This document shows, one piece after another, positions 21,884 through 32,551 of a DNA stretch of 64,000 nucleotides. Position 1 is the stretch's first letter; each line of letters opens with the position of its first letter. Origin of the DNA: Planctomycetia bacterium. Lineage in GTDB: Bacteria; Planctomycetota; Planctomycetia; Pirellulales; UBA1268. Both the position numbers and the translations under genes were made by a program. The notes under the pieces are model-generated. The model was given only the letters and a program-made list of their open reading frames with translations, ran no database searches and was not told the origin of the DNA. The DNA lies in NCBI GenBank assembly GCA_014192425.1, contig BJHK01000010.1:82089-146088 (forward strand), read 5' to 3'.

Positions 21884-22946
21884 GGAACGACGACTGGGAC
21901 GCGGACTGGAAGCCCTGCTCGGCCGGGCGGGCCTGGAGCCGCAGACGCCGGCACCGGCGGTGCAGGGGACGGCGGCGCTGGCGAGCCAGCCCGCCGCGCG
22001 GCCCGCGGCCGGACTCGGCTCGGGCGCGGCCCGGCTGTTCCTCCACGCTCCGGAGGAGCTGGAGAAGTCGGCCGCCGACCTGCCGGTCATGGAGGCCCGC
22101 GCCGACCGCATCGACGCCAATCCCTGGCAGCCGCGGAGCGTGGTCGGCGCTGCCGACCTCGAGGAGCTCGTGGCCAGCCTGCGGGAGCACGGGCTCGTGC
22201 AGCCGATCGTCGTCCGTGCCAAGGCCGACCGCTACCAGTTGATCGCCGGCCAGCGTCGGCTGGCGGCGGCCCGCCGGCTCGGCTGGGAGAAGGTGCCGGT
22301 CCGCGTCCTCGACGTGGACGATCGCGGCATGGCGGAGATCGCGATCGTCGAGAACCTGCAGCGCCGAGATCTCGATGCCCTGGAGAAGGCAGCCAGTTTC
22401 CGGCAGTATCTTTCCACCTGGGGCTGCACGCAGGAGGAACTGGCGAAGCGGCTGTCGATCGACCGCTCGCACGTGGCCAATCTGATCAGACTGCTCGAAC
22501 TCCCCGAGGGGGTGCAGGGCCGACTCCGGTCAGGCTCGATCTCGATGGGGCATGCCCGCGCCCTCCTCCCGCTCGGCGACGAGGCGGAGCAGGTCCAGCT
22601 CGCCGACCGCGTGGCCGCCGAGGGGATGTCGGTGCGGACGCTGGAGGGGGAGATCCAGGAGATCCTGCGGCGCGACGACGAGGGCCTGGCGGACGACGAC
22701 ATGCAGGTCGGCGATGTCGGCAGCGACGAGGCAGCCGGCGAGCGGCCTGCGGTGCCGGCGAAGCGCCGGCCGGGGCGGCCGGCGACGCGGCGGCCGAGCC
22801 AGGTGGTGGCGGTGGAGAACCAGTTGCGGCGGGCGCTCGGCGTGAAGGTGGTCGTGCACGCCAACGGCCGGGGGGCGGGGCGGATCGTAATCCCGTTCGC
22901 CGACCTCGACGAGTTCCAGCGGCTGCTCGACCAGCTTTCGGAGTGA
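21876..22946 (+). CDS. parB: Chromosome partitioning protein ParB/Spo0J
   Basis: GTG 21876 gives VSRERRLGRGLEALLG, the canonical ParB N-terminus. LVQPIVVR, LIAGQRRLAAARRLG and ENLQRRDL boxes. Overlaps the parA stop by 8 nt. Confidence 0.9.
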   Translation: MSRERRLGRGLEALLGRAGLEPQTPAPAVQGTAALASQPAARPAAGLGSGAARLFLHAPEELEKSAADLPVMEARADRIDANPWQPRSVVGAADLEELVASLREHGLVQPIVVRAKADRYQLIAGQRRLAAARRLGWEKVPVRVLDVDDRGMAEIAIVENLQRRDLDALEKAASFRQYLSTWGCTQEELAKRLSIDRSHVANLIRLLELPEGVQGRLRSGSISMGHARALLPLGDEAEQVQLADRVAAEGMSVRTLEGEIQEILRRDDEGLADDDMQVGDVGSDEAAGERPAVPAKRRPGRPATRRPSQVVAVENQLRRALGVKVVVHANGRGAGRIVIPFADLDEFQRLLDQLSE

Positions 22947-22999
22947 CGTGAGAGACGTGCATGGCCGGGGCCGGTCGGCCGCGGTACACTCGCACGCCT

Positions 23000-23072
23000 C
23001 GGAGCGTAGCGCAGTTGGTAGCGCGCTTGGTTTGGGACCAAGAGGTCGAGAGTTCGAATCTCTCCGCTCCGA
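23000..23072 (+). tRNA. tRNA-Pro (anticodon UGG)
   Basis: Folded by hand. Acceptor cggagcg/cgctccg, D arm gcgc-agttggta-gcgc, anticodon arm cttgg-ttTGGga-ccaag, variable loop aggtc, T arm gagag-ttcgaat-ctctc, discriminator a. CCA is not encoded. Confidence 0.93.
23027..23072. repeat. attL core (3' half of tRNA-Pro)
   Basis: 46-nt ttggtttgggaccaagaggtcgagagttcgaatctctccgctccga is identical to 30123-30168. Confidence 0.9.
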
Positions 23073-23142
23073 TTCATTTTCGCCCTTGAAAACAAGGCGT
23101 TTGCGAGCGCGGCCGAAAATGCTCGCCCGGCCGATGCCCGCC

Positions 23143-23165
23143 CGGCGCTACCCCGGCGCTACCGC
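23143..23165 (+). repeat. Tandem 10-mer pair near attL (candidate integrase arm-type site)
   Basis: cggcgctacc-c-cggcgctacc-gc. The same 23-mer with one mismatch is at 29971-29993, in the same orientation. Confidence 0.6.
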
Positions 23166-23408
23166 AGGACGGATTTCGCGGCCCCGCCGCCCGGCCGCAC
23201 TGCGCCCGCGGGGTGGGGACCGCAACGAACGTGCCGGACGATCCGAGACCCCGCGACCCCTCGCCCCGCGTTTCCGGCGGTTTCGTTTGGGGGGGGGTGG
23301 GGTCCGCGAGAAATCGGACGTGCGGACGAAGACCCCATGCCCCCTTCACGCGAGAACGTGCCGGGTTTTCGAAAATCGCCGGGCGATCGTGGCGCAAGAA
23401 AGTCTGTG

Positions 23409-23803
23409 CAGGGCAGCGGATTTCGCAGCCGGGGGCCGGGGCGAGGGCCGACAAGGAAGGACCCGTCGCCCGACCGCTGCCGGACCGGGGGGCGGCGGGG
23501 CGAATCACGGCAGGATCGGCGACGGTCCGCCCCCGGCCCGCGGTTCGCACACTGGCGGGTCCTCCCGAGCGTTGTGGTCGGAACGCCGGCCTACGGATCG
23601 CCGACCGTGTCCGGCAGACTTGTCCCACCGCGAAAAGCGGGCACCCGTGCGACGGGTCCTTCCCAGCGGTCGCATCCAGCCCCACGGCCTACGGATCGAC
23701 CGCCCGCCGACACACTGTTTGTTTTCCCGTTCCGCCGGTGTCGCGGGTCCTTCCGCCGGGCCGGCCGGCCGCGCCCCCGGCTGCGAAATCCCCCCGTGCC
23801 CTG
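23409..23803. repeat. Imperfect ~57-bp inverted repeat pair enclosing ~280 bp with internal direct repeats
   Basis: Arms at 23409-23465 and 23744-23803 share, in inverted orientation, blocks of 11 bp (cgggtccttcc), 18 bp (cccccggctgcgaaatcc) and 7 bp (tgccctg). A 14-bp direct repeat cggcctacggatcg occurs at 23588 and 23686 between the arms. Confidence 0.7.
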
Positions 23804-23970
23804 ACTCTCTCCCTCAGTCCGGCCGCCCGTGCTCGGCTGGGAAATCCATGGCCATCCTGAGCCGTAGTTCGCGATTCGCTTTTCGGGCGACCGGCTGCAA
23901 TTCGTTGTGATCCCCTCTGTAAGATGGTAGCCTCCCCTCGTCAATCGCCTTCAATCAAAAGGGACAACAA

Positions 23971-24522
23971 ATGCGGATTGTAAAATTCTTCGTCGGACTT
24001 GTTTTTTGCGTCGGTCTGGCACAGGTCTTCATGGCGAGCGGTAAGCAGCGACCGCAAAACATTGAAGCGCCCGCGAAACGCCAGCAGCCGCAAGCAGTCA
24101 CGCCGGCTCCGCCAGAGAAGCCCTTGCCAAAGCCATCAACTGACACGGCCGAGACTCGGGAAAAGTTGGTTGACGCACTAGTTGAGCAGTTCAATCCGGC
24201 GCCCGCCGGATGGGCCGGGTTTGCGGTTCGCAAAGTCGAATTGAAAAACGTTGGCCAAGTAGCCGTCACGCTCAACTATTCAAAACAACCCAGTGGCTAC
24301 CCGCAGGTTCAGGCCGACACAAAAAAGGTCGTCCGCGCGTGCTTGAAATGGATTCAGGAACAAGGCCACGATCCTGCAAAGGAATGGATCACGGTCATCG
24401 CTTCGGCTCACCTTCCAGAAAAGGGCGAGACTGGTAAGGACTTGGTGCGGATCATGGGCCGGAGTACCTACAACTTCAACAACGACCAGATCGAGTTCAA
24501 GAAAGATGCGAACCTGTGGTGA
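23971..24522 (+). CDS. Secreted/membrane-anchored hypothetical protein (island cargo)
   Basis: Clean ORF in an otherwise ORF-poor region, about 50% GC. N-terminal signal-like MRIVKFFVGLVFCVGLAQVFMASG, Pro/Gln-rich linker, then a ~110-aa globular part. No family recognised. Confidence 0.7.
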   Translation: MRIVKFFVGLVFCVGLAQVFMASGKQRPQNIEAPAKRQQPQAVTPAPPEKPLPKPSTDTAETREKLVDALVEQFNPAPAGWAGFAVRKVELKNVGQVAVTLNYSKQPSGYPQVQADTKKVVRACLKWIQEQGHDPAKEWITVIASAHLPEKGETGKDLVRIMGRSTYNFNNDQIEFKKDANLW

Positions 24523-24803
24523 CTCGCTTCCTTGACGCCGTTGGGCGAGCACCTCAAAAAACAATCCTGCCCCCTCGCCGGCGAAATGGCGAAATTCGAG
24601 AAACCGAGCGAAAGCCGCTGTTTTCAAGGGCTCGAATTTCACCGGCCGCGCCGGATTGAAATTCGGCGGAAATGCCGAAACTCCCCGCCACGTCCTCGCC
24701 AGCGGGGCCGGCCGGGCGAATTTGTGATTTTCTCCGAATTCCGCCAGATCGACCGCCGGCGAAATTCACCGGCCCGAAACCGGCGTTTCACTCGGCGATT
24801 CCG

Positions 24804-26363
24804 CTACCTCGGCTTGCCCGGCGGGAATTTCTCCATTTCTTGCGCCGCCGCCCCGGGGAACATTTCTTCCACCGGCGGGAGAACCCGCTCGCCGTCCGCG
24901 TCCCGCCCGGTCGGCTTCCATGCTTTCGGCGGACGACCGCGGCCGGCCGGGGCCGGGTCGGCTCGATCGAGGCACCCTTTGTCTTCCAGTTCGGCGAGGT
25001 ACCCGTTCGCCGTGGACTGCCCCGTCTTCAGCCGGCGGCGCACGTCCTTCGCCGAGAACGGGACGGGAAGGGCGTCGAACGGGTCGTCCACCTCGGCGAG
25101 CAACCGCTCGAGGAACCGCCGCGCCGGGTCGGACAGGGACTCGCCGATCGTCCTCGCCAGCGGTCCCGACAGCAGCCGGGCGGCGACCGCGTAGTCCGCC
25201 GGCTCGGCGATCAGTCGTCCGTCCTGGTCCGTCTTCCGCTGCCGTTGGTGCAGCAGGGCGGAAGCCTGCACGATCGAGAGGACCATCGGGAGGGCGCGGC
25301 GACACTCGACCCGATCCGCGAACGCCTCGAGTTGTTCGACAAGCCGCTCGGCGAACGGAATCACGATCGCCCGCCGCTCGAGCAGCCGTTGCATGGCATG
25401 GTGCCGCGCCACGACGGGCGACACGTCCGAACGAACCTTGCCGCTCGCCACGGCCGCCAGCCGTCGCATGATCGTCTTCGTCTGCACTCGCCGTTCGTCC
25501 GTCGAAAGCATGATGCACCGGTTCGCGTCTTCCTCGAACACCCGCGCCGCAGTCGTGGATTCCACGAACGCGATCGGTCCTTCCTGCTCGATCGTCACGG
25601 TCTGGATTTCGCCGTCCACCTTGCAGGGCATCATCTTCGTGAGCCGGCCGGCGGACAGCATTTCCCGCAGCGCCCGCGTAGCCTCGGCTTTGTCGTCGTT
25701 CTCGATCCGCGACCGCTCGCCCGCCACGACCCAACGGTGCGACAGGCTCCCCGGCCGCGCATGGAACAGGGCTTGCGGCGTCATCGTCGTGGCGAGCACG
25801 ACCGATTCGTTCGGGAACAGGCTCGCCACCTTTTCGACGGTGTGGGACTTCCCCGAGGACGATTGCCCCTGGACGATCGCGGCGAGGGGGCGCGGCAGCA
25901 GCCGGGAGGTCCCGACCAAATACAGGGTCAGCCGCAGGTCGTCTTCGCCGGCGACCCCGGCGGCTTCAATGTCGTTTCCGATTCGGTCGATCAGCGCCGG
26001 GTCCTCGAGCAGTCGCGCCGCTTCCTCGAGCACCGCGGGGTCGGTCTGCTCGAGCGCGGTACGGGTCTGCTCGGCGAGGTCGTCCGGCGGTGCCGCGTCC
26101 GTCTGCGGGGCGTTCTCGGCGGACCGCTCGCTCGCGGCGCGCAGTAGTTGGGCTTGCACGTCCTCGGCGGGAATCCCGTGTTCATCGGCGAGCCGCGCCG
26201 CGTATTCGTCCCGTTTCGTTTTCTTCGCCAGATCGACCGTATCGGTGTCGATCAGTTCGCCGCTCGCGCAGTCGAGAACCTCCACGATGGTCCGCCTTTG
26301 CTTCCCGAGCGGAGTGAATCGGAATTCGACCGGCGCGGCGGCGGTGTTCTCGGGGCTGCTCAT
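24804..26363 (-). CDS. Walker-A NTPase, putative replication/helicase-type protein of the element, with probable C-terminal winged-helix
   Basis: Start at ATG 26363 (MSSPENTAAAP...). P-loop VQGQSSSGKSHTV, hydrophobic strand plus acidic residue IAFVESTT. C-terminal GQSTANGYLAELEDKGCL looks like a wHTH. The function assignment is inference. Confidence 0.6.
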   Translation of the reverse strand: MSSPENTAAAPVEFRFTPLGKQRRTIVEVLDCASGELIDTDTVDLAKKTKRDEYAARLADEHGIPAEDVQAQLLRAASERSAENAPQTDAAPPDDLAEQTRTALEQTDPAVLEEAARLLEDPALIDRIGNDIEAAGVAGEDDLRLTLYLVGTSRLLPRPLAAIVQGQSSSGKSHTVEKVASLFPNESVVLATTMTPQALFHARPGSLSHRWVVAGERSRIENDDKAEATRALREMLSAGRLTKMMPCKVDGEIQTVTIEQEGPIAFVESTTAARVFEEDANRCIMLSTDERRVQTKTIMRRLAAVASGKVRSDVSPVVARHHAMQRLLERRAIVIPFAERLVEQLEAFADRVECRRALPMVLSIVQASALLHQRQRKTDQDGRLIAEPADYAVAARLLSGPLARTIGESLSDPARRFLERLLAEVDDPFDALPVPFSAKDVRRRLKTGQSTANGYLAELEDKGCLDRADPAPAGRGRPPKAWKPTGRDADGERVLPPVEEMFPGAAAQEMEKFPPGKPR

Positions 26364-26469: not shown

Positions 26470-26754
26470 TCACAGATCGCAAATGTCGAAGCCGTTTTTC
26501 GTCGTCGCGTCCGATTTCCGCAGCGCGGCTTGCGAACGTTCGATTTCCACAGTGACAGCCGAACAGGCATCGTCCCCGCCGAGGTCCCGCAGTCGGTCCC
26601 ACAATTCAGAATCGAACGTGAACCCATGCGGCAAATGCTGCCGGCGGATCGCGTGAGACAGGACCGCCACGACCGCCAGCCGCAGCCGGCCGGCGAGGTC
26701 CTCGAGGTCTACGGCCCGGCCGCGCACGTCCGCGTCGGTGTCGTCCTTCGTCAT
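26470..26754 (-). CDS. Small hypothetical protein (94 aa)
   Basis: ATG overlaps the stop of the upstream ORF as ATGA (26751-26754). Acidic, non-repetitive sequence. Confidence 0.5.
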   Translation of the reverse strand: MTKDDTDADVRGRAVDLEDLAGRLRLAVVAVLSHAIRRQHLPHGFTFDSELWDRLRDLGGDDACSAVTVEIERSQAALRKSDATTKNGFDICDL

Positions 26755-27269
26755 TCCGCACCCCCTCGCGCCCGCCGGCGCACGTCCCGCGCGAGGTCGT
26801 GGAAGCCGGCTTGCATGAACTGCCGCGCGGCCCCCCGCAGGATCGCCCGCCGCTGCGGCCCTTGCAGCCGCGCGGCTTCCTGCACGTCCTCCCGCGCCCT
26901 GGAAAGGTGTCGCCCGAGCCGGCTGTTCGTGTTCGTCAGTCGGTTGGCGTTCACGACCGGACCCCCTTCCTGCCGGCGGTCCACCGGCTCGAGCGGATCG
27001 TCCTGGTCGGGTTCGTCTTCGCCGGTGCAGCCGTCCCCGGGGGGGTCGGTCGCCGGTTCGGGTTCGTCTTCGCCGGCGGCGGCTGCACGTCCTGCCGATC
27101 GACCGCCGGCTCGAGCAGTTCGGCGGACGACACGAACCGGCGGCGGAACGAATCGAACGACCCGACAGCCCCGCCGCCGGCGGCGGCGTATGCGATCACG
27201 GCGGCGGTACTCGCCCCCGAGCACCGCGACCCGACCGGCTCGAGGTCCACGTCTTCGATCCGCTGGCAA
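26751..27269 (-). CDS. Hypothetical ORF; only the C-terminal ~100 aa look protein-like (possible 3' part of a frameshifted gene)
   Basis: The C-terminal part GEDEPEPATDPPGDGCTGEDEPDQDDPLEPV...FMQAGFHDLARDV is plausible. The N-terminal part is Arg-rich and overlaps the better-looking frame of 26951-27469. Confidence 0.35.
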   Translation of the reverse strand: MPADRRRGPRAGRVAVLGGEYRRRDRIRRRRRRGCRVVRFVPPPVRVVRRTARAGGRSAGRAAAAGEDEPEPATDPPGDGCTGEDEPDQDDPLEPVDRRQEGGPVVNANRLTNTNSRLGRHLSRAREDVQEAARLQGPQRRAILRGAARQFMQAGFHDLARDVRRRARGGAE

Positions 27270-27469
27270 GCCGAATCGACCATGCGACCGATCAGTAGCC
27301 GGTCGTCCGGCCCGATCGGGACTTGCCGGCCGACCAGGGCGAGCACCTTCCCGCCGAGGTCGATCCGGCGGAACTGGTCCGCCAGCGTCCGAGCCGGGGC
27401 CGGGCGGCGGTCCAGGGAAGCCGGGCTTGCCTCCAGACCGTAGGATTCAAGAGCGACGACAATCGCCAT
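26951..27469 (-). CDS. Hypothetical ORF; the N-terminal ~125 aa look protein-like (possible 5' part of a frameshifted gene)
   Basis: MAIVVALESYGLEASP...GRMVDSACQRIEDVDLEPVG...SSAELLEPAVDRQ is plausible. The tail (PPPAKTNPNRRPTPPG...) looks like an out-of-frame reading of the acidic repeat. Confidence 0.4.
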   Translation of the reverse strand: MAIVVALESYGLEASPASLDRRPAPARTLADQFRRIDLGGKVLALVGRQVPIGPDDRLLIGRMVDSACQRIEDVDLEPVGSRCSGASTAAVIAYAAAGGGAVGSFDSFRRRFVSSAELLEPAVDRQDVQPPPAKTNPNRRPTPPGTAAPAKTNPTRTIRSSRWTAGRKGVRS

Positions 27470-27531
27470 TTGCAGCCCCGGCGCGGGGCAGTAGATTCCG
27501 TCCATTCGACCCGCCTCCCAACGGGTTCACC

Positions 27532-27580: not shown

Positions 27581-27811
27581 TTAGGTCCTCGGGTTCCTGG
27601 TCCTGGTCGCGCCGCCGGTCGATTCGCCGCGCTCGGCGATCCACTGGGACAATTCGCTCGCGCGGTACCTCACCGCACGGCCAACCCGCACCTCGGGCGG
27701 GCGATCCTCGCGTCCCTGCCACTTCCAGCGGGCGAGGGTCTGCGGCTGGAAGCCGAGAACCTCGGCGGCTTGCTTGCGGGTCAGCAGCCGGTCGTCCGTT
27801 GCCGTTGCCAT
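27581..27811 (-). CDS. AlpA/excisionase-family helix-turn-helix protein
   Basis: LLTRKQAAEVLGFQPQTLARWKWQG...VGRAVRYRASELSQWI matches the AlpA / MerR-like excisionase DNA-binding pattern. Confidence 0.8.
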   Translation of the reverse strand: MATATDDRLLTRKQAAEVLGFQPQTLARWKWQGREDRPPEVRVGRAVRYRASELSQWIAERGESTGGATRTRNPRT

Positions 27812-27922
27812 TCGTCACGTCCTTTCGGTTTCGTGTTCGTCGCACGTCGTCCACGACGGACGATTGATTGCGACAACAGGAAACCTACGGGCGATTGACG
27901 ACCCGGGAAACGACGAACCAGC

Positions 27923-27961
27923 GGGTTTGTCGTGCGATTCGACAAACCCCGGGGTTTGTCG
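27923..27961. promoter_or_regulatory. Operator-like triple box upstream of the alpA-like gene
   Basis: gggtttgtcg occurs at 27923-27932 and 27952-27961, with its inverse cgacaaaccc at 27940-27949. Positions 27940-27961 form a perfect 22-bp palindrome cgacaaacccc|ggggtttgtcg. A related cgggttgtcgtg lies at 26377-26388, upstream of the NTPase gene. Confidence 0.6.
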
Positions 27962-27985: not shown

Positions 27986-28684
27986 TCAGTCGATTCCGTC
28001 CACGATCCGCGCAACGTGGCGTTCCGAAATCTGAAACTCTTCGCCGACCCGCATATACCGCACGGTTTTCTTCGGGGTCGTCTTTCGCAGTTCGCGGAAC
28101 CGTTTGCGGATCGCTTTATGGATCGGCGCGGCTTGTGCTCGGCGAGCCGCTCCACCCTTGCGGGCGGCTTCCCTTAGCCCCTCGATCACCGGCGCGGCTT
28201 CGGCGGACTGTTTCAGATCGTCTGCGTATCGCCACATGGCGAGAAAGAATCCCTGCGCCATCGCCGTGTTTATCGCCGCATGCAGCACCATCAATTCGGC
28301 ATATGAAAAATCCAACTGGTCCCACTTCCAATACTCAGGATCGCCGAGGTCATCGCCGCAAGGTGTGAATCGGTTGTATGATTCGCTTGGGAAATGATCG
28401 AAGAACCGCCACGGCTCAGATACGATCATTTCGACTACCCACAAGTACGTTTGCTCGCCGTTGGCGGCGATCGCTTTTTCGATGTCAGGCGGGACGGCAA
28501 TTCCTCTAATCTTCGTCCCGTTGGTCCAGCACGGTATTCCATCAGCGGGCCTGAATCGCGGATAGTCTCCGGTGTCGGACCATAGCGGCGGAATCCGCTG
28601 GCCGTTTTCGTCCGGTAGCACCAGTGGCTTCGCCGGCAGCGCCGGCGTCTTCCTCTTGTTCCGGCCGGCTTTCTTCCGTTTCAT
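27986..28684 (-). CDS. Hypothetical protein with basic N-terminus and C-terminal HTH
   Basis: ATG 28684 overlaps the integrase stop as ATGA (28681-28684). MKRKKAGRNKRK... start. C-terminal VRYMRVGEEFQISERHVARIV looks like a resolvase/sigma-region-4-type HTH. Lower GC (~57%). Confidence 0.65.
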   Translation of the reverse strand: MKRKKAGRNKRKTPALPAKPLVLPDENGQRIPPLWSDTGDYPRFRPADGIPCWTNGTKIRGIAVPPDIEKAIAANGEQTYLWVVEMIVSEPWRFFDHFPSESYNRFTPCGDDLGDPEYWKWDQLDFSYAELMVLHAAINTAMAQGFFLAMWRYADDLKQSAEAAPVIEGLREAARKGGAARRAQAAPIHKAIRKRFRELRKTTPKKTVRYMRVGEEFQISERHVARIVDGID

Positions 28685-29949
28685 CCATGCCCCTTCCGTT
28701 TCTGTTTCCGTTCCTCGGCTTTGCGCCGCTTCCGGTCGGCGTGAACGACCGACCGCATAGCGTCCGTCGCACGTTCGACCGATTCCCGAACCGGGTCCAG
28801 GGTCAGCCGCGCGTAGACCGCCGTGGATCGCGTGTTCCGGTGCCCGAGGGACTTTCCGATCAGCAGTTCGGACGACCCGTTCGCGGCTTGCCACGACCCG
28901 AACGTGCGCCGCAGATCGTGCAGCCGCACGTCCTCGAATCCCGCCGCCTTGAACACCTTCGCCAGCGGTTTCCGAACGTCCTTCAAGTGTTCCTTGCCAT
29001 GCCGGCCGGGGAACACCCATTCCCGCCCGCCGGCGGCGAACAGGCGCGACCGAATCACCTCCACCGCTTCGGCGACCAGGGGAACGTAAACCGGCGACTT
29101 GTTCTTCGAATCGGTCTGCGGAATCGTCCAGACCGCTCGAGGTAGGTCAACGTCCGCGAACCTCATTCGCATGAGCGCCGTTTTCCTCGCCCCCGTCAGC
29201 AGGGCGAGCCGCAGGAAATCGGCGATCCGCACGTCCTCGGCGGCGTCGATCGCGTCGAAAAGCCGGGGTAGTTCCTCGGGGGTCACGAACCGTTCGCGTT
29301 CGTGCTCCGTGAACGGCTTCACCTTCCTCACCGGGTTCCCGCCGGCGAAATTGAAATCCCCGGCGGCAACCTCGAACAGCCGGTGCAGGACCCCGCGCCA
29401 GCGGTTCGCAAGGTAGGGGCCGTTTTCCTTGCCGAGCCGGCGGTGCATTTCGAGCACGTCCATCTTCGTCACGGCGGACAGCCGGCGGGACTTCCAGGTC
29501 GGGGAATTCGCCTCGAACAGCCGTTCCATATGCGCCCACGTCCGGCAGTTCGGCTTCCAGTGATGTTCGACCGTGTGGGCGAGGACTTCGCCGAGGGTCG
29601 GATCGGACCGGTCGGGTTGCCGGCGGCGGCGGCGTTCGGCGTTCGGGTCGCGCCCCTCGGCGATTTCGCCGGCGGTTTTCTGGACCAACCGCCGGGCCGC
29701 TTCCGGGGTCAGGTCGGGATAGCCCCCGAGCCGGACCCGGCGGGGCCGGCCGTTCACCTTGCGGTAGAGGTAGAACGACCGCGCGCCGCTCGAGGTCGTT
29801 TCCAGGTAGAAGCCGCGCACGTCCTGGTCGAAGACGACCGTGCGGCCGGTCGCGGGAACCGGAATCGCGTCGATGGTCCGTTTGGTCAGCCGTGTTCGTG
29901 TCGGCGGGGTTCGTTTCTGGCGGTTCGGTTGTGCGGTCATTTTGAACAC
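28681..29949 (-). CDS. int: Tyrosine recombinase/integrase (P4-like, with N-terminal DUF4102-type arm-binding domain)
   Basis: N-terminus LTKRTIDAI...DQDVRGFYLETTSSGARSFYLYRKVNGRPRRVRLG. Catalytic residues in LLTGARKTAL (R), HDLRRTF (HxxR) and LGHRNTRSTAVYARL (H..Y). Adjacent to attR. Confidence 0.92.
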   Translation of the reverse strand: MFKMTAQPNRQKRTPPTRTRLTKRTIDAIPVPATGRTVVFDQDVRGFYLETTSSGARSFYLYRKVNGRPRRVRLGGYPDLTPEAARRLVQKTAGEIAEGRDPNAERRRRRQPDRSDPTLGEVLAHTVEHHWKPNCRTWAHMERLFEANSPTWKSRRLSAVTKMDVLEMHRRLGKENGPYLANRWRGVLHRLFEVAAGDFNFAGGNPVRKVKPFTEHERERFVTPEELPRLFDAIDAAEDVRIADFLRLALLTGARKTALMRMRFADVDLPRAVWTIPQTDSKNKSPVYVPLVAEAVEVIRSRLFAAGGREWVFPGRHGKEHLKDVRKPLAKVFKAAGFEDVRLHDLRRTFGSWQAANGSSELLIGKSLGHRNTRSTAVYARLTLDPVRESVERATDAMRSVVHADRKRRKAEERKQKRKGHG

Positions 29950-29970: not shown

Positions 29971-29993
29971 CGGCGCTACCTCGGCGCTACCGC
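29971..29993 (+). repeat. Tandem 10-mer pair near attR (candidate integrase arm-type site)
   Basis: cggcgctacc-t-cggcgctacc-gc; 22/23 identical to 23143-23165. Lies between the int start (29949) and the attR core (30123). Confidence 0.6.
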
Positions 29994-30122
29994 CGGGGTC
30001 TACTCGGGTCCATGAACGTCAACGAACGTCCACGGCCAAATATCGCCATTTTCTACGGGTAAATCAACAGAAAAGCCGTCCCGAGGGGGGCGTCTTCAAT
30101 CCCCGTCCATCCCCCCCGAAAT

Positions 30123-30168
30123 TTGGTTTGGGACCAAGAGGTCGAGAGTTCGAATCTCTCCGCTCCGA
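30123..30168. repeat. attR core (displaced copy of the tRNA-Pro 3' half)
   Basis: Identical to 23027-23072; flanking bases differ on both sides. Confidence 0.9.
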
Positions 30169-30377
30169 CTCGATGGCGACGAACCAGTCGACGCTGGATC
30201 GTCGAGCGGCGGAATTGTATGGTTCCCGGGAGTACGGTACGCTCCCGAAGTCAGTGCCTGGGCAGCGGCTCGACTCGCGGTAAACCGCGGCGCAGCCGCG
30301 GGGTTCCGGTGCCTCGAAATTCCCGGCACCGCAGCATCGACGGCGCCGTGCAACAGGGAGCCGATGCAGGATCATCA

Positions 30378-31223
30378 ATGGCTCGACTCGACAGGCATAT
30401 GCAGAGGCTCGAGTCGCTCCGCAGGCGACTTGGGTTCATCATCGATGCGTTGTGCATTCGTCAAATTGCGAGTTGTGTATTGTCGATCATCCCCGTCCGC
30501 CGGACCGCTGACGGAGCTTCGGTTCGAATCCGATGCTGGTCGGACATCCTGGCTTACGAGGAGATTTTCACTGGCGGAATCTACGATTCCGTGTTCGACG
30601 CGGCCCCCGTCGCGACGTATTGCGACCTGGGTTGTCAGAGCGGCATGGCGATCTTAAGGCTTGTGAACCGGTCTGGGCCGCCGGCATGTAGCCTGCTGAT
30701 CGACGGCAATCCGCGGGCCGTGGCCCGCTGTCGGGAAAACGTGCGCGAAGCGGGGATCAGGCACGCGGTAGTCGTTCACGGCGCCGTCGGCTGCGGCGCC
30801 GGCGATGCTCATGATGGCACAGTGCATTTCAAGATTGTGCCCAATGAACTCGAGTGCTGTGTGGCGGAGATCGGGGCGACGCCGATGGTTGCGCTCACCT
30901 TGCCCGTCCCAGCCATCGATCTGGAGGCCGCGTGGCGCGAGCATTGCGGCGACGTTTCGTGTGAGTTGCTGAAGATGGACATCGAAGGAGCCGAGCTGAA
31001 TGTGCTTCGCACGGAGTCAAGGTTCCTGAAGCGCGTGCAGCGATGCGTGCTCGAATGGCATGATCCACCGGCTTCGCTTGCCGAGATAACGAACATGCTT
31101 CGCACGCACGGGTTTGTGGACATCGAGTCGATCTGGCAACGTGATTCCACGGGCGTGTTGACCTGCCGGCGTAGTCGTTGCGACGACGAGACACGGTCCG
31201 GGGCCGATGCGTGCGGCCAGTAG
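30378..31223 (+). CDS. FkbM-family methyltransferase
   Basis: Start at ATG 30378. YCDLGCQSGMAILRL (SAM-binding loop) and the hallmark LKMDIEGAELNVL. The listed longer ORF starts inside attR and is rejected. GC about 55%. Confidence 0.8.
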   Translation: MARLDRHMQRLESLRRRLGFIIDALCIRQIASCVLSIIPVRRTADGASVRIRCWSDILAYEEIFTGGIYDSVFDAAPVATYCDLGCQSGMAILRLVNRSGPPACSLLIDGNPRAVARCRENVREAGIRHAVVVHGAVGCGAGDAHDGTVHFKIVPNELECCVAEIGATPMVALTLPVPAIDLEAAWREHCGDVSCELLKMDIEGAELNVLRTESRFLKRVQRCVLEWHDPPASLAEITNMLRTHGFVDIESIWQRDSTGVLTCRRSRCDDETRSGADACGQ

Positions 31224-31234
31224 CCTTTAATGTC

Positions 31235-32551
31235 GGTTCTTCGGGACTTTCAGTGGCACCGTAGCTGCGGTTTCAGATCCAGTTTCCCGCAAAAGAACAA
31301 GATTCGCGTTTGGTAGTTCGGGAACGAGCGAAAGCCGCGAGCCGCGTACTTCAAGGACTGGATGACGCTGTTGAAGCCCTCACTCGCCGCATTCGTGATT
31401 CGATAGAGGAAGTAGCTCAAAAGATTCGGGAGGTGCCGCTTGAGCATCTTGGCCACCTTGACCATAGGCCGGAGGCGGCATCTTGCTCCCCATGCGTACC
31501 ACCGCTTGAAGAACTGCTCGGCACTCGTCGAGTAGACATGACGCCAGAACCAGCGGAAATCTTCCTTGATTGCCCAGGCTCGGGCCGTTTTCAGCCCTTT
31601 GCGGCGGATGGCTGCGAATCTACGGCGCTGCTTCCATGAGAGGTTGGACTTGTTGAGGAGCCAGAGTTGGCGTGTGCCCTTCAGCCGGTCATCGTCTTCC
31701 GCTTGGAGAGCCTTGTTTTCTGATCGCCGCACTTGATCTACAGCTTCACCGAGGTGCTTGGCCACATGGAACTTGTCGTGCACCAACTTGGCATTCGGAG
31801 TCTGTTTCGCCACGGCATTTGCATACGCAGGAAGCATGTCGGCCGCCACGGCTTGGACCTGCTGCCGCTGCTCGGGCGTCAGGGTCTGGAGGATCGCCTC
31901 TGCTGCGACCTGCGTTCTGTCTGGAACGACGTCCAGGACGCGGGAACCATTGAGATCTGTCAGCACAGTGATGTAGTCGTGGCCTCTTCCGAAGCTCTTT
32001 TCATCGATTCCGAGATGGGGAATCGGCGTTGCCTCACGCCGCTCCAGGCCCCGCTCGACAGCTCGGTTCATGATCGTCTGCAAGGAATCCCAGGAGAGTC
32101 CAAGAAGGGCAGCAGCGGCTTTGACGTTGCGGCACGCCTGCAACACTTCGATGGCAAAGGCTTCGAAGAGCAGAGTGAATCGACTATGCTTTCCGGCCCA
32201 CGGAGGTATGATCGTCTTCACTCCGTGTTCCGGGCAGCGGGATCGAGGAAGTCCGGCGACCAGCTCCGTCGTGACCTGCATGGTGTCGAGGTGTCGCCAA
32301 CGCCGTTCATCGGCATGATCGGCAAGGCCACATGCACGGCCAGATTCAGGACAGGCGATGCCCGAGCCGACGTGCTTCAAGCGGATTTCGACTTGGCGGT
32401 CCTCGAGCCGTAGGTCAACCGCCTCAACCCGCCAGGATTCGTCGGTTCCCAGCAGTCGGGCGTAGTGGGTGGCAAGTGTTTCCATCCCCCCATTTTAAGC
32501 CTCGCCCGTCCGAACTCTGCCAGCTCGTGCCACGAAATTCCCCGAAGAACC
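31235..32551. mobile_element. ISL3-family insertion sequence (1317 bp, apparently intact)
   Basis: Imperfect ~25-bp terminal inverted repeats: ggttcttcgggactttcagtggcac (31235-) and the reverse complement of gtgccacgaaattccccgaagaacc (-32551). Single transposase ORF. Flanking 8-mers are ttaatgtc and ttaatatg (5/8 identical). Confidence 0.85.
31250..32485 (-). CDS. ISL3 family transposase
   Basis: N-terminal zinc-finger-like CPESGRAC...CPEHG, then LGIDEKSFGRGHDYITVLTDL and HDKFHVAKHL, typical of DDE_Tnp_ISL3. Confidence 0.9.
   Translation of the reverse strand: METLATHYARLLGTDESWRVEAVDLRLEDRQVEIRLKHVGSGIACPESGRACGLADHADERRWRHLDTMQVTTELVAGLPRSRCPEHGVKTIIPPWAGKHSRFTLLFEAFAIEVLQACRNVKAAAALLGLSWDSLQTIMNRAVERGLERREATPIPHLGIDEKSFGRGHDYITVLTDLNGSRVLDVVPDRTQVAAEAILQTLTPEQRQQVQAVAADMLPAYANAVAKQTPNAKLVHDKFHVAKHLGEAVDQVRRSENKALQAEDDDRLKGTRQLWLLNKSNLSWKQRRRFAAIRRKGLKTARAWAIKEDFRWFWRHVYSTSAEQFFKRWYAWGARCRLRPMVKVAKMLKRHLPNLLSYFLYRITNAASEGFNSVIQSLKYAARGFRSFPNYQTRILFFCGKLDLKPQLRCH

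Follow-up and report, generated by a model that had tools for sequence, protein, structure and literature searches.

The integrated element

We analysed a GC-rich region of about 0.9 kb (positions 23073-23970) in a 64-kb stretch of a Planctomycetia genome, the whole of which is here called the window. The region forms the left end of a 7,096-bp integrated element and contains short DNA modules of two types that also occur beside the terminase genes of phages. These modules may be mimics of phage packaging signals, in which case the element would be a small phage satellite. The region starts directly after a tRNA-Pro(TGG) gene (22999-23073) in a genome of about 70% GC, and the insert is bounded by a 46-bp attachment (att) core, the 3' part of this tRNA gene at 23027-23072 that recurs at 30123-30168. 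An earlier note on this DNA, made from the letters alone, had placed the region on the attL side of a compact 7-kb element, and the repeated tRNA end bears this out. Genes and other features outside the modules are the following.

22999-23073, plus strand: tRNA-Pro(TGG), the integration target, with its 3' 46 bp as attL core, 23027-23072 (ARAGORN; Rfam tRNA, 73 bits).
23848-23970, plus strand: upstream region of the cargo gene, GC down to 0.56, part of an insertion of about 0.7 kb.
23971-24522, plus strand: cargo gene, 183 aa, signal-peptide-like N-terminus, lower GC, converging on the helicase gene, without a family match.
About 24560-24840, no strand assigned: region C, a dyad-symmetric block of GAAAT-type iterons and the best origin candidate (from conservation and repeats).
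24804-26363, minus strand: 519-aa P-loop protein ending in a winged-helix domain, called 'DNA primase' in some sources; predicted fold like that of minichromosome maintenance (MCM) helicases.
26470-26754 and 26951-27505, minus strand: two unassigned open reading frames (ORFs).
27581-27811, minus strand: 76-aa helix-turn-helix (HTH) protein, excisionase/AlpA-like (PHROG 66, 'excisionase and transcriptional regulator', E 2e-10), 73-90% identical across relatives.
About 27986-28687, minus strand: 233-aa protein with an HTH-like C-terminus (weak HTH_32 hint).
28681-29949, minus strand: tyrosine integrase with an N-terminal arm-DNA-binding domain (Pfam Phage_integrase, 1.9e-23; Arm-DNA-bind_3, PF13356, 4.5e-15).
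30123-30168, plus strand: attR core, the 46-bp copy of the tRNA-Pro 3' part (identity with 23027-23072).

All backbone genes of the element lie on the minus strand. Pfam and PHROG searches of its ORFs returned no capsid, tail or portal match, and no genes for capsid size or redirection (Sid, Ccm, Rpp) were recognised in it. The comparison set consisted of 108 related loci, referred to by L-numbers, from metagenome-assembled genomes of Planctomycetota and from metagenomes. The family is abundant: the 519-aa helicase has 778 homologues, mostly in Planctomycetota and many of them on contigs of 6-8 kb. Two relatives are circular, L036 (5.9 kb, 123-bp terminal overlap) and L105 (6.8 kb, 141 bp), and the sequence of L105 recurs in rotated form as L104 in another sample. 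These overlaps, together with the rotated copy, imply that free circles of the element family exist. L047 (10.8 kb) likewise has a terminal overlap, of 127 bp.

The order of parts is constant across relatives: att core, a first block b1, none to two b2 modules, none to three or more tripartite units, cargo (whose position varies), region C and the 3' end of the helicase gene. Homology with L105 ends at 23847 and restarts at region C. Cargo genes in relatives likewise encode small secreted or membrane proteins and always point to the helicase gene; a weak promoter-like TTGTGA-N17-TAGCCT may be read upstream of the cargo gene of this element. The 233-aa gene belongs to a single fast-evolving family that is present in all relatives, so that phylogenetic profiling of this gene against the presence of units failed. 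The idea that its product is sigma-like was dropped as well, as only the weak HTH_32 hint was returned.

Repeats and modules in the non-coding region

The earlier note had taken the 0.9 kb at 23073-23970 to be non-coding, and this holds. Codon-position GC is flat over about 22,940-23,750, where the three phases differ by 0.02-0.14 (maximum minus minimum in a GC frame plot); the corresponding difference in the flanking parB and primase-like genes is 0.4-0.6, with strong third-position GC. None of the four long ORFs of the region matched Pfam at E<=0.1, and tblastn with their translations, run with composition correction off, gave scattered low-complexity matches in all frames, which are noise only.

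Within this region the earlier note had described one long imperfect inverted repeat with direct repeats inside it. The repeats themselves are real. Inverted arms at 23418-23443 and 23766-23791 are complementary over 26 nt at 88%, GGAAGGACCCG at 23455-23465 pairs with CGGGTCCTTCC at 23744-23754, and the 14-bp sequence CGGCCTACGGATCG occurs in direct orientation at 23587-23600 and 23685-23698, so that the starts given before (23588 and 23686) were off by one. The arm core GGATTTCSCRGCC does recur at 23171, as had been claimed: the window holds exactly four matches (23171 and 23418 on the plus strand, 23779 and 23835 on the minus strand), all inside the region, and six when one mismatch is allowed, a number reached in 0 of 100 shuffles. 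The box CGGGTCCTTCC has four matches in the window at no more than one mismatch, all within 23455-23754. The palindrome TTTTCGAAAA is present at 23366-23375 but is not conserved as such, relatives carrying TTTTCAAAAA. Judged from the window alone, 3 of 300 dinucleotide shuffles reach the best inverted-repeat score and 5 of 300 the best direct-repeat score. This is only modestly above chance, and the reality of the repeats therefore rests on their conservation in related elements and phage contigs, in both of which they are found. A more fitting description is an array in which a module of about 68 nt is present in diverged copies, one of them inverted. What looked like a long inverted repeat is the inverted unit (23397-23465) facing a canonical unit (unit C, 23743-23813); a gap of 8 nt separates the inverted from the direct copy in the relative L105.

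The modules of the region are listed below, with scores from a hidden Markov model (HMM) of the unit and from profiles built from viral copies only.

23210-23283, plus strand: b2 copy a, GGGGTGGGGAC-N26-GACCCCGCG...TTTCCGGCGGTTTCG (viral-only profile, E=6e-8).
23291-23375, plus strand: b2 copy b, GGGGGGGTGGGGTCC-N26-GACCCCATG...ACGCGAG...GGGTTTTCGAAAA, containing TTTTCGAAAA (viral-only profile, E=3e-11 at 23293-23370).
23397-23465, minus strand: inverted unit, X GCGGGTCCTTCC, about N21, Y CCCGGCTGCGAAATCC, about N15, Z CAGACTTTCTTGCG (unit HMM, E=3.7e-9; viral-only profile, 1.4e-4 at 23464-23418).
23556-23626, plus strand: unit A, a variant, X' CGGGTCCTCCC, Y' GGCCTACGGATCG, Z' CAGACTTGTCCC.
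23653-23725, plus strand: unit B, of the variant type of A and more decayed, X CGGGTCCTTCC, Y' GGCCTACGGATCG.
23743-23813, plus strand: unit C, canonical, X at 23743-23754, Y core CTGCGA at 23781-23786, Z GACTCTCTCCC at 23803-23813 (unit HMM, E=3e-11; viral-only profile, 9.5e-7 at 23745-23799).
23819-23847, plus strand: partial unit D, only the Y box CGGCTGGGAAATCC and its upstream spacer, aligning with the second direct unit of L105.

The b2 module is about 85 nt long. A pattern search of IMG/VR gave 96 loci, and about half of the 80 listed share the 26-nt gap seen in the window; the b2 profile matches 46 of the IMG/VR loci. When a profile built from 46 viral copies was searched against the window, it returned copies a and b, and its sole other match had an E value of 0.37. 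Twenty copies from elements and phages align without gaps over about 95 columns, and over this length copy b and 14 phage copies share 50-69% identity without an indel. At their 3' ends the two copies of the window resemble two different phage subtypes.

The surroundings of b2 in viral contigs are highly regular: an HNH gene lies just upstream in 45 of 46 cases and a recognisable P27-type small terminase gene (terS) just downstream in 28 of 46. In L171, L174 and L153 the module fills the short gap that leads from the HNH endonuclease gene to the P27-type small terminase gene, and the full order in L174 is HNH (PF01844), b2, Terminase_4, large terminase (TerL) and portal. HK97-like phages have their cohesive-end site (cos) flanked by the HNH gene, at the right end of the genome, and by terS, at the left, an arrangement that has reportedly been described for HK97 itself. 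Viral b2 modules occupy this classical position, and we therefore read b2 as cos-region-like. Binding of the HK97 small terminase takes place beside an A-tract, 15-29 bp away from the cos cut, and cleavage at cos is stimulated by gp74, an HNH protein (PMC11331095). The b2 module ends in a conserved GGGTTTTCAAAAA tract, which is suggestive only when set beside this HK97 site. Three viral copies lie within 200 nt of a locus end, none at the end itself, and a possible b2 remnant upstream of the terS gene of L105 gives only a degenerate alignment. Taking position and homology together, we lean slightly towards b2 acting as a packaging signal.

The second module type forms an array of four to five copies of a tripartite unit of about 68 nt, one inverted, at 23397-23847. 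Each unit combines the boxes X (GCGGGTCCTTCC), Y (CCCGGCTGCGAA) and Z (GAnTCT) at fixed spacing; the spacers are variable in sequence and show indels of 1-2 nt. The variant type is not confined to the window, as L028 carries a homologous variant unit with identical GGCCTACGGATCG and CAGACTTGTCCCACCG. A viral-only unit profile matches the 64 kb solely at 23745-23799 and 23464-23418, that is, in unit C and the inverted unit. A search of IMG/VR for X plus Y gave 43 loci; 16 of them also have Z and match over the full unit. Four viral loci have a unit whose end lies 30-31 nt ahead of a TerL gene of the lambda gpA type, followed by a lambda-family portal gene; the gpA-type large terminase downstream of viral units has 704 aa (GpA_nuclease, 8.8e-24). 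In nine others the unit faces a convergent XerC/D-like integrase gene at 65-1190 nt from its 3' end. A packaging role for the unit, judged by itself, seems possible and falls somewhat short of an even chance.

Several further observations concern these viral unit loci. L116, L123, L110, L109, L134 and L143 (IMG/VR) each have one unit and, converging on it, a XerC/D-like integrase gene; the interval between the two holds a conserved hairpin, GCCGCCGC-TGATC-GCGGCGGC. Some of the contigs with a unit facing an integrase are only 6-13 kb long and may be small elements of a second kind and not phages. In L114 (1860-3335) and L147 (9723-9800) the DNA upstream of the phage units contains palindromes of G/C runs, such as GGGGGGGTACCCCCCC and GTACCCCCACAGCAGGGGGTAC, and tandemly repeated ATGAACACGTGCACGC, which are candidates for a nicking site or operators.

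Before a function in DNA is considered, it may be asked whether the region encodes a structured non-coding RNA, one of the roles offered in the earlier note, or is a decayed protein-coding gene. The long-range complementarity (26 nt at 88%), the fold z-score of the plus strand and the long open frames within the GC-rich DNA would fit such a view. Most of the evidence points the other way. An Infernal/Rfam scan, which the earlier note had proposed, found nothing in the region except the tRNA, neither at the gathering cut-off nor at E<=10, and the z-scores of the whole-region fold (-1.96, that of the plus strand, and -1.17) are unremarkable. The covariation check on homologous copies, likewise proposed there, was run with RNAalifold on 15 unit copies and gave a consensus fold of -2.2 kcal/mol with 0 compensatory pairs; the long inverted repeat, too, is without compensatory change in L036. 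Homologous blocks vary by indels of 1-2 nt and are found in both orientations, the codon-position GC signal is absent and Pfam is empty. An RNA or a decayed gene is accordingly most improbable, and the modules very likely act as DNA.

The packaging-signal reading and its main alternatives

Both module types are homologous to DNA immediately upstream of phage terminase genes, which gives comparative support to one of the roles that the earlier note had offered, that of a packaging or transfer site. The element also has the marks of a satellite: an integrase with att sites, circular relatives (L036 and L105), its own replication module and no virion structural genes. From this gene set, including the excision HTH protein, together with the phage-terminase-linked modules, we conclude that the module array may represent mimics of helper-phage packaging signals (cos regions) in a cos-type phage satellite. 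We would put the probability of this reading at roughly 0.5.

Relatives add to the terminase connection. L104 and L105 carry a small terminase gene of the Terminase_4 (P27) family in the same slot, between the attP arm and the unit array (L105 3901-4341 and L104 6160-6600, both on the minus strand); its product is 29% identical to the small terminase of the phage L174, and the helicase of L105 is 86% identical to that of the element. The element in the window is without a Terminase_4 gene. One or both module types are present in nearly all relatives, though not always the same type. In one Joint Genome Institute (JGI) sample, 3300034061, the circular element L104 was found together with viral contigs carrying the unit (L139) and b2 (L165).

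Under the packaging reading, infection by a helper phage would lead the integrase and the HTH protein to excise the element, and the MCM-like helicase would replicate it from the iteron palindrome at 24560-24840. The TerS, TerL and HNH proteins of the helper would then recognise b2, the units or both and package element DNA, probably as multimers, into helper capsids, so that the element would spread as P4, SaPIbov5 and other cos-type satellites do. With several diverged copies of each of two module types it might use, or interfere with, more than one helper lineage. The most far-reaching version of this would be an undescribed family of 6-7-kb satellites in Planctomycetota that combines an MCM-like helicase with a 'multi-cos cassette', drawn from HNH/P27-TerS (HK97-like) and lambda gpA-like systems, allowing packaging by several helper lineages or titration of their terminases. 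As a joint claim we regard this as tentative and rather unlikely.

The main rival explanation follows the logic of the P4 promoters Psid and PLL, which resemble P2 late promoters: the modules could be helper-type late promoters, from which a helper-encoded activator switches on transcription of the element. In phage contigs the first packaging genes do follow immediately after both modules, and every cargo gene is placed downstream of the modules with the same orientation. The geometry of the unit, (C/T)TGCGA, 16 nt (15-18) and (G/C)AnnCT, invites comparison with the TAnnCT -10 box of host tRNA genes; b2 has ACGCGA-N17-GAAAAT, and viral units carry a dyad (for example CCCCGCG-GCA-CGCGGGG) near -51 that could be an activator site. 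However, the HNH stop and the terS start bracket b2 so tightly that little space is left for a start site and leader, and in the nine viral loci with a convergent integrase gene the unit would fire into the 3' end of that gene. None of the units has T at the first -10 position, and a consensus scan of 22800-24200 found no sigma-70-like site. The cargo genes, moreover, appear to have their own promoters, and neither the inverted copy nor the tandem redundancy is explained. Consensus sequences for sigma-54, extracytoplasmic function (ECF) and canonical sigma-70 factors were also compared with the units; none fitted by eye and none was found in the scan, leaving the weak -35/-10-like geometry. 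Altogether we consider a promoter function unlikely. Even if it were correct, the shared cis-modules would tie the elements functionally to phages; both readings describe a phage-dependent element.

Several points weigh against the packaging reading itself. No cos end is mapped in the phages concerned, which makes the place between HNH and terS a positional argument; the DNA of this gap could equally hold a promoter or the region of the terS translation start. Identity between b2 and its phage copies is 50-69%, whereas known cos satellites are near-identical to the cos of their helper, although the true helper of the element may simply be unsampled. Several copies within 650 bp, one of them inverted, are unusual for cos. 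The gpA-type TerL of L147 is preceded by another gene and not by a unit, and in L040, L004, L029 and L030 neither module is detectable. The search of IMG/VR for helicase relatives found none, hence no sign of encapsidation, which says little as this database is selected for viral hallmark genes. Finally, the viral copies were found with patterns derived from the elements, and the reciprocal profile test is therefore not fully independent.

The nine viral loci in which the unit faces a convergent XerC/D-like integrase instead of a terminase also count against packaging, and they are the starting point of another explanation: the units could be att or target sites, or scars, of XerC/D-integrase elements, and the array a record of insertions and losses at a cargo hotspot. 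A distance of 65-1190 nt from the integrase 3' end is the usual place for an att site, cargo genes are found at varying positions among the modules, and the copies are diverged and partly truncated. On the other side, the cargo of the window is without a XerC/D-type integrase or flanking direct repeats, the unit lies next to TerL in four phage loci with no integrase nearby, and b2 is left unexplained. This origin of the array is very improbable. A variant, in which Xer-integrase elements insert between unit and TerL, failed on L147, with its TerL gene preceded by the other gene.

The attachment-site arm and the candidate origin

Two further parts of the element can be distinguished. The first is block b1 (23074-23185), which adjoins the att core and contains the following features; the opposite arm is given with them.

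23081-23102, plus strand: hairpin CGCCCTTG-AAAA-CAAGGCG followed by TTT, an intrinsic terminator supplied by the element.
23144-23163, plus strand: P' arm, two tandem arm-type integrase sites GGCGCTACC with an 11-bp period (starts 23144 and 23155).
23171-23183, plus strand: conserved box GGATTTCGCGGCC (CGRTTTCGCCGG in relatives), beside the arm-type sites.
29972-29991, plus strand: P arm, mirrored tandem of two GGCGCTACC (starts 29972 and 29983), between the int start and the attR core.

The hairpin adjoins the core in 21 of 21 aligned relatives with a conserved T-run, and six of its seven stem pairs change on both sides, a covariation score reached in 0 of 500 shuffles. A simple terminator scan did not flag it, only three T following in this window. 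The hairpin is a terminator for the reconstituted tRNA gene.

In the reconstituted attP the tandem pairs of both arms stand 268 bp apart, against 265 bp in the circular L036. The N-domain of the integrase is 81-94% identical in loci with GGCGCTACC and 54-60% identical in loci with GGGGCTATGC or GGGGCAACC. Since the repeat sequence tracks this domain, and the repeats occur on both arms at a similar spacing, we predict that they are arm-type integrase sites. The first 110 bp or so of the region are almost certainly the P' arm of attP, which the earlier note had missed. The box at 23171-23183 has a nearly invariant TTTCGC core in 21 relatives and remains constant while arm-type repeats or origin iterons change; an excisionase or accessory factor is its putative binder. 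On the P arm, a sigma-70-like TTGATT-N17-GATATT (30039-30067, minus strand) is directed towards int and also conserved in L105, and the spacer within it is similar to the iterons of region C (GGCGGAAATGGCGATATT). In L024 and L027 two family members stand in tandem via an attP-like junction (b1, core, P arm), which suggests tandem accretion or multimers.

The second part is region C. An origin was another of the roles that the earlier note had offered for 23073-23970, and it fits region C better, which lies outside that interval and is far more conserved. Situated between the cargo and helicase genes and running into the helicase 3' end, region C is the most conserved non-coding block of the family, with 72 nhmmer hits at E values down to 1e-46. 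It matches its own profile on both strands, the iterons being direct in the left half and inverted in the right. The iterons differ by element (CGAAAT, ACAAAT, CAGAAAT, ATAAAT), and the left and right halves stay matched. The adjoining 519-aa protein is without a Pfam family apart from a weak MarR_2 match at its C-terminus; its AlphaFold model (predicted local distance difference test, pLDDT, 74) has archaeal and eukaryotic MCM proteins as best PDB matches (E 2.5e-7, template modelling (TM) score about 0.4), and we predict an MCM-like helicase. Given the iteron palindrome and this neighbour, region C appears to be the better origin candidate; it is a likely replication origin and would be suited to the loading of a double hexamer.

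The proximity of this origin candidate raises the question whether the modules might be accessory sites for a protein of the element itself (the MCM winged helix, the 76-aa HTH protein or the HTH-ended 233-aa protein), with a role in copy-number control, in origin enhancement as for P4 crr, or in excision control. Fixed box spacing with variable spacers and absent RNA covariation would suit protein-binding sites. Where no cargo intervenes the array lies only 44-90 bp from region C, and all relatives have a Y-like box adjacent to the arm-type sites. In this element GCGAAAT, the core of the Y box, is also the iteron core of region C, with 6 of its 16 occurrences in the window falling in the 1.7 kb at 23073-24803, and copy number and orientation vary as they do for auxiliary iterons. 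Yet the Y box stays GCGAAAT in elements whose iterons are ACAAAT or CAGAAAT and hence does not co-vary with the presumed specificity of the initiator; modules also occur in phage contigs without the helicase, integrase and HTH proteins of the element, and some relatives have no modules. We hold such an accessory role to be quite improbable. The narrower proposal that the Y box is chiefly an auxiliary iteron was rejected, the box being constant while the iterons of region C change between elements.

Other features of the neighbourhood bear on regulation and context. Upstream of the 76-aa HTH gene (about 27830-27960, minus strand), two 22-bp palindromes of the CGACAAACCnnnnGGTTTGTCG type come after a hairpin resembling a terminator; conserved in L104-L107, they have the look of operators of the replication operon. 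Beyond attR there are a transposase-like-looking ORF of 411 aa (31250-32485, minus strand) and an FkbM-type methyltransferase ORF (30123-31223, plus strand), the listed start of which overlaps the att core; the real start is probably further downstream.

Comparison with known systems

If the modules are packaging signals, matching subtypes of b2 or unit would allow satellites to be paired by sequence with their helper phages in metagenomic data. They would also provide candidate cos sites for two groups of uncultured phages, and an example of a satellite that hedges between terminase systems. For annotation in general, the region illustrates that seemingly empty GC-rich DNA beside a tRNA gene can be dissected into an arm of attP, modules of phage origin and a slot for cargo.

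The arm fits the attP of lambda- and P4-type tyrosine integrases: tandem repeats with a period of about 11 bp on both arms, a core derived from a tRNA gene, and an integrase with an arm-binding N-domain with which the repeats co-vary. The comparison covers only the first 110 bp or so, and no sites for integration host factor (IHF) or excisionase (Xis) could be assigned. With P4 ori/crr and plasmid iteron origins the region shares repeated units of about 95 bp, short boxes in both orientations and a nearby helicase gene, but the repeated box does not co-vary with the origin iterons and the iteron palindrome is region C.

Closest to the packaging reading are the cos-type satellites, namely the Staphylococcus aureus pathogenicity islands (SaPIs) SaPIbov4 and SaPIbov5 with phi12 and phiSLT, P4 with P2, and cos phage-inducible chromosomal islands (PICIs) such as EcCICFT073. 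In cos-type SaPIs a cos site of the helper is conserved, and cos phages package these islands (PMC5052747); the HNH-dependent cos packaging of SaPIbov5 helpers matches the HNH-terS context of b2 (PMC5052747, PMC11331095). Like these satellites, the element is small, has an integrase, an excision/regulatory HTH protein and its own replication, lacks capsid and tail genes, and contains DNA with homology to phage sequence near the terminase genes (the cos region); some of its relatives carry a small terminase. It differs in its host phylum (Planctomycetota), in a size of only 6-7 kb and in an MCM-like replication protein instead of Pri-Rep or P4 alpha. Its modules are 50-69% identical to the sampled phages rather than near-identical, and they belong to two unrelated types in several copies, one inverted. 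No Sid, Ccm or Rpp was recognised.

A second parallel is found in the PICMIs (phage-inducible chromosomal minimalist islands) and other minimal marine satellites of about 5.5-6 kb. PICMIs occur in Vibrionaceae, depend on virulent helpers and have their DNA packaged in concatemeric form into capsids of full size, a need that a 7-kb cos element would share; to our knowledge, no arrays of cos-like modules have been described in them. The likeness to the present element is drawn from size and gene content and spans Vibrionaceae and Planctomycetota: both are very small and restricted to integrase, regulator and replication functions, with no capsid-remodelling genes. For PICMIs the latter is reported in PMC10803314.

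Overall, attP arms and cos-carrying satellites are already known kinds. A literature search returned no phage satellite described in Planctomycetota so far, and what is new here is the host phylum, an MCM-like replication module within an element of 6-7 kb, and an array that combines modules of two unrelated terminase systems.

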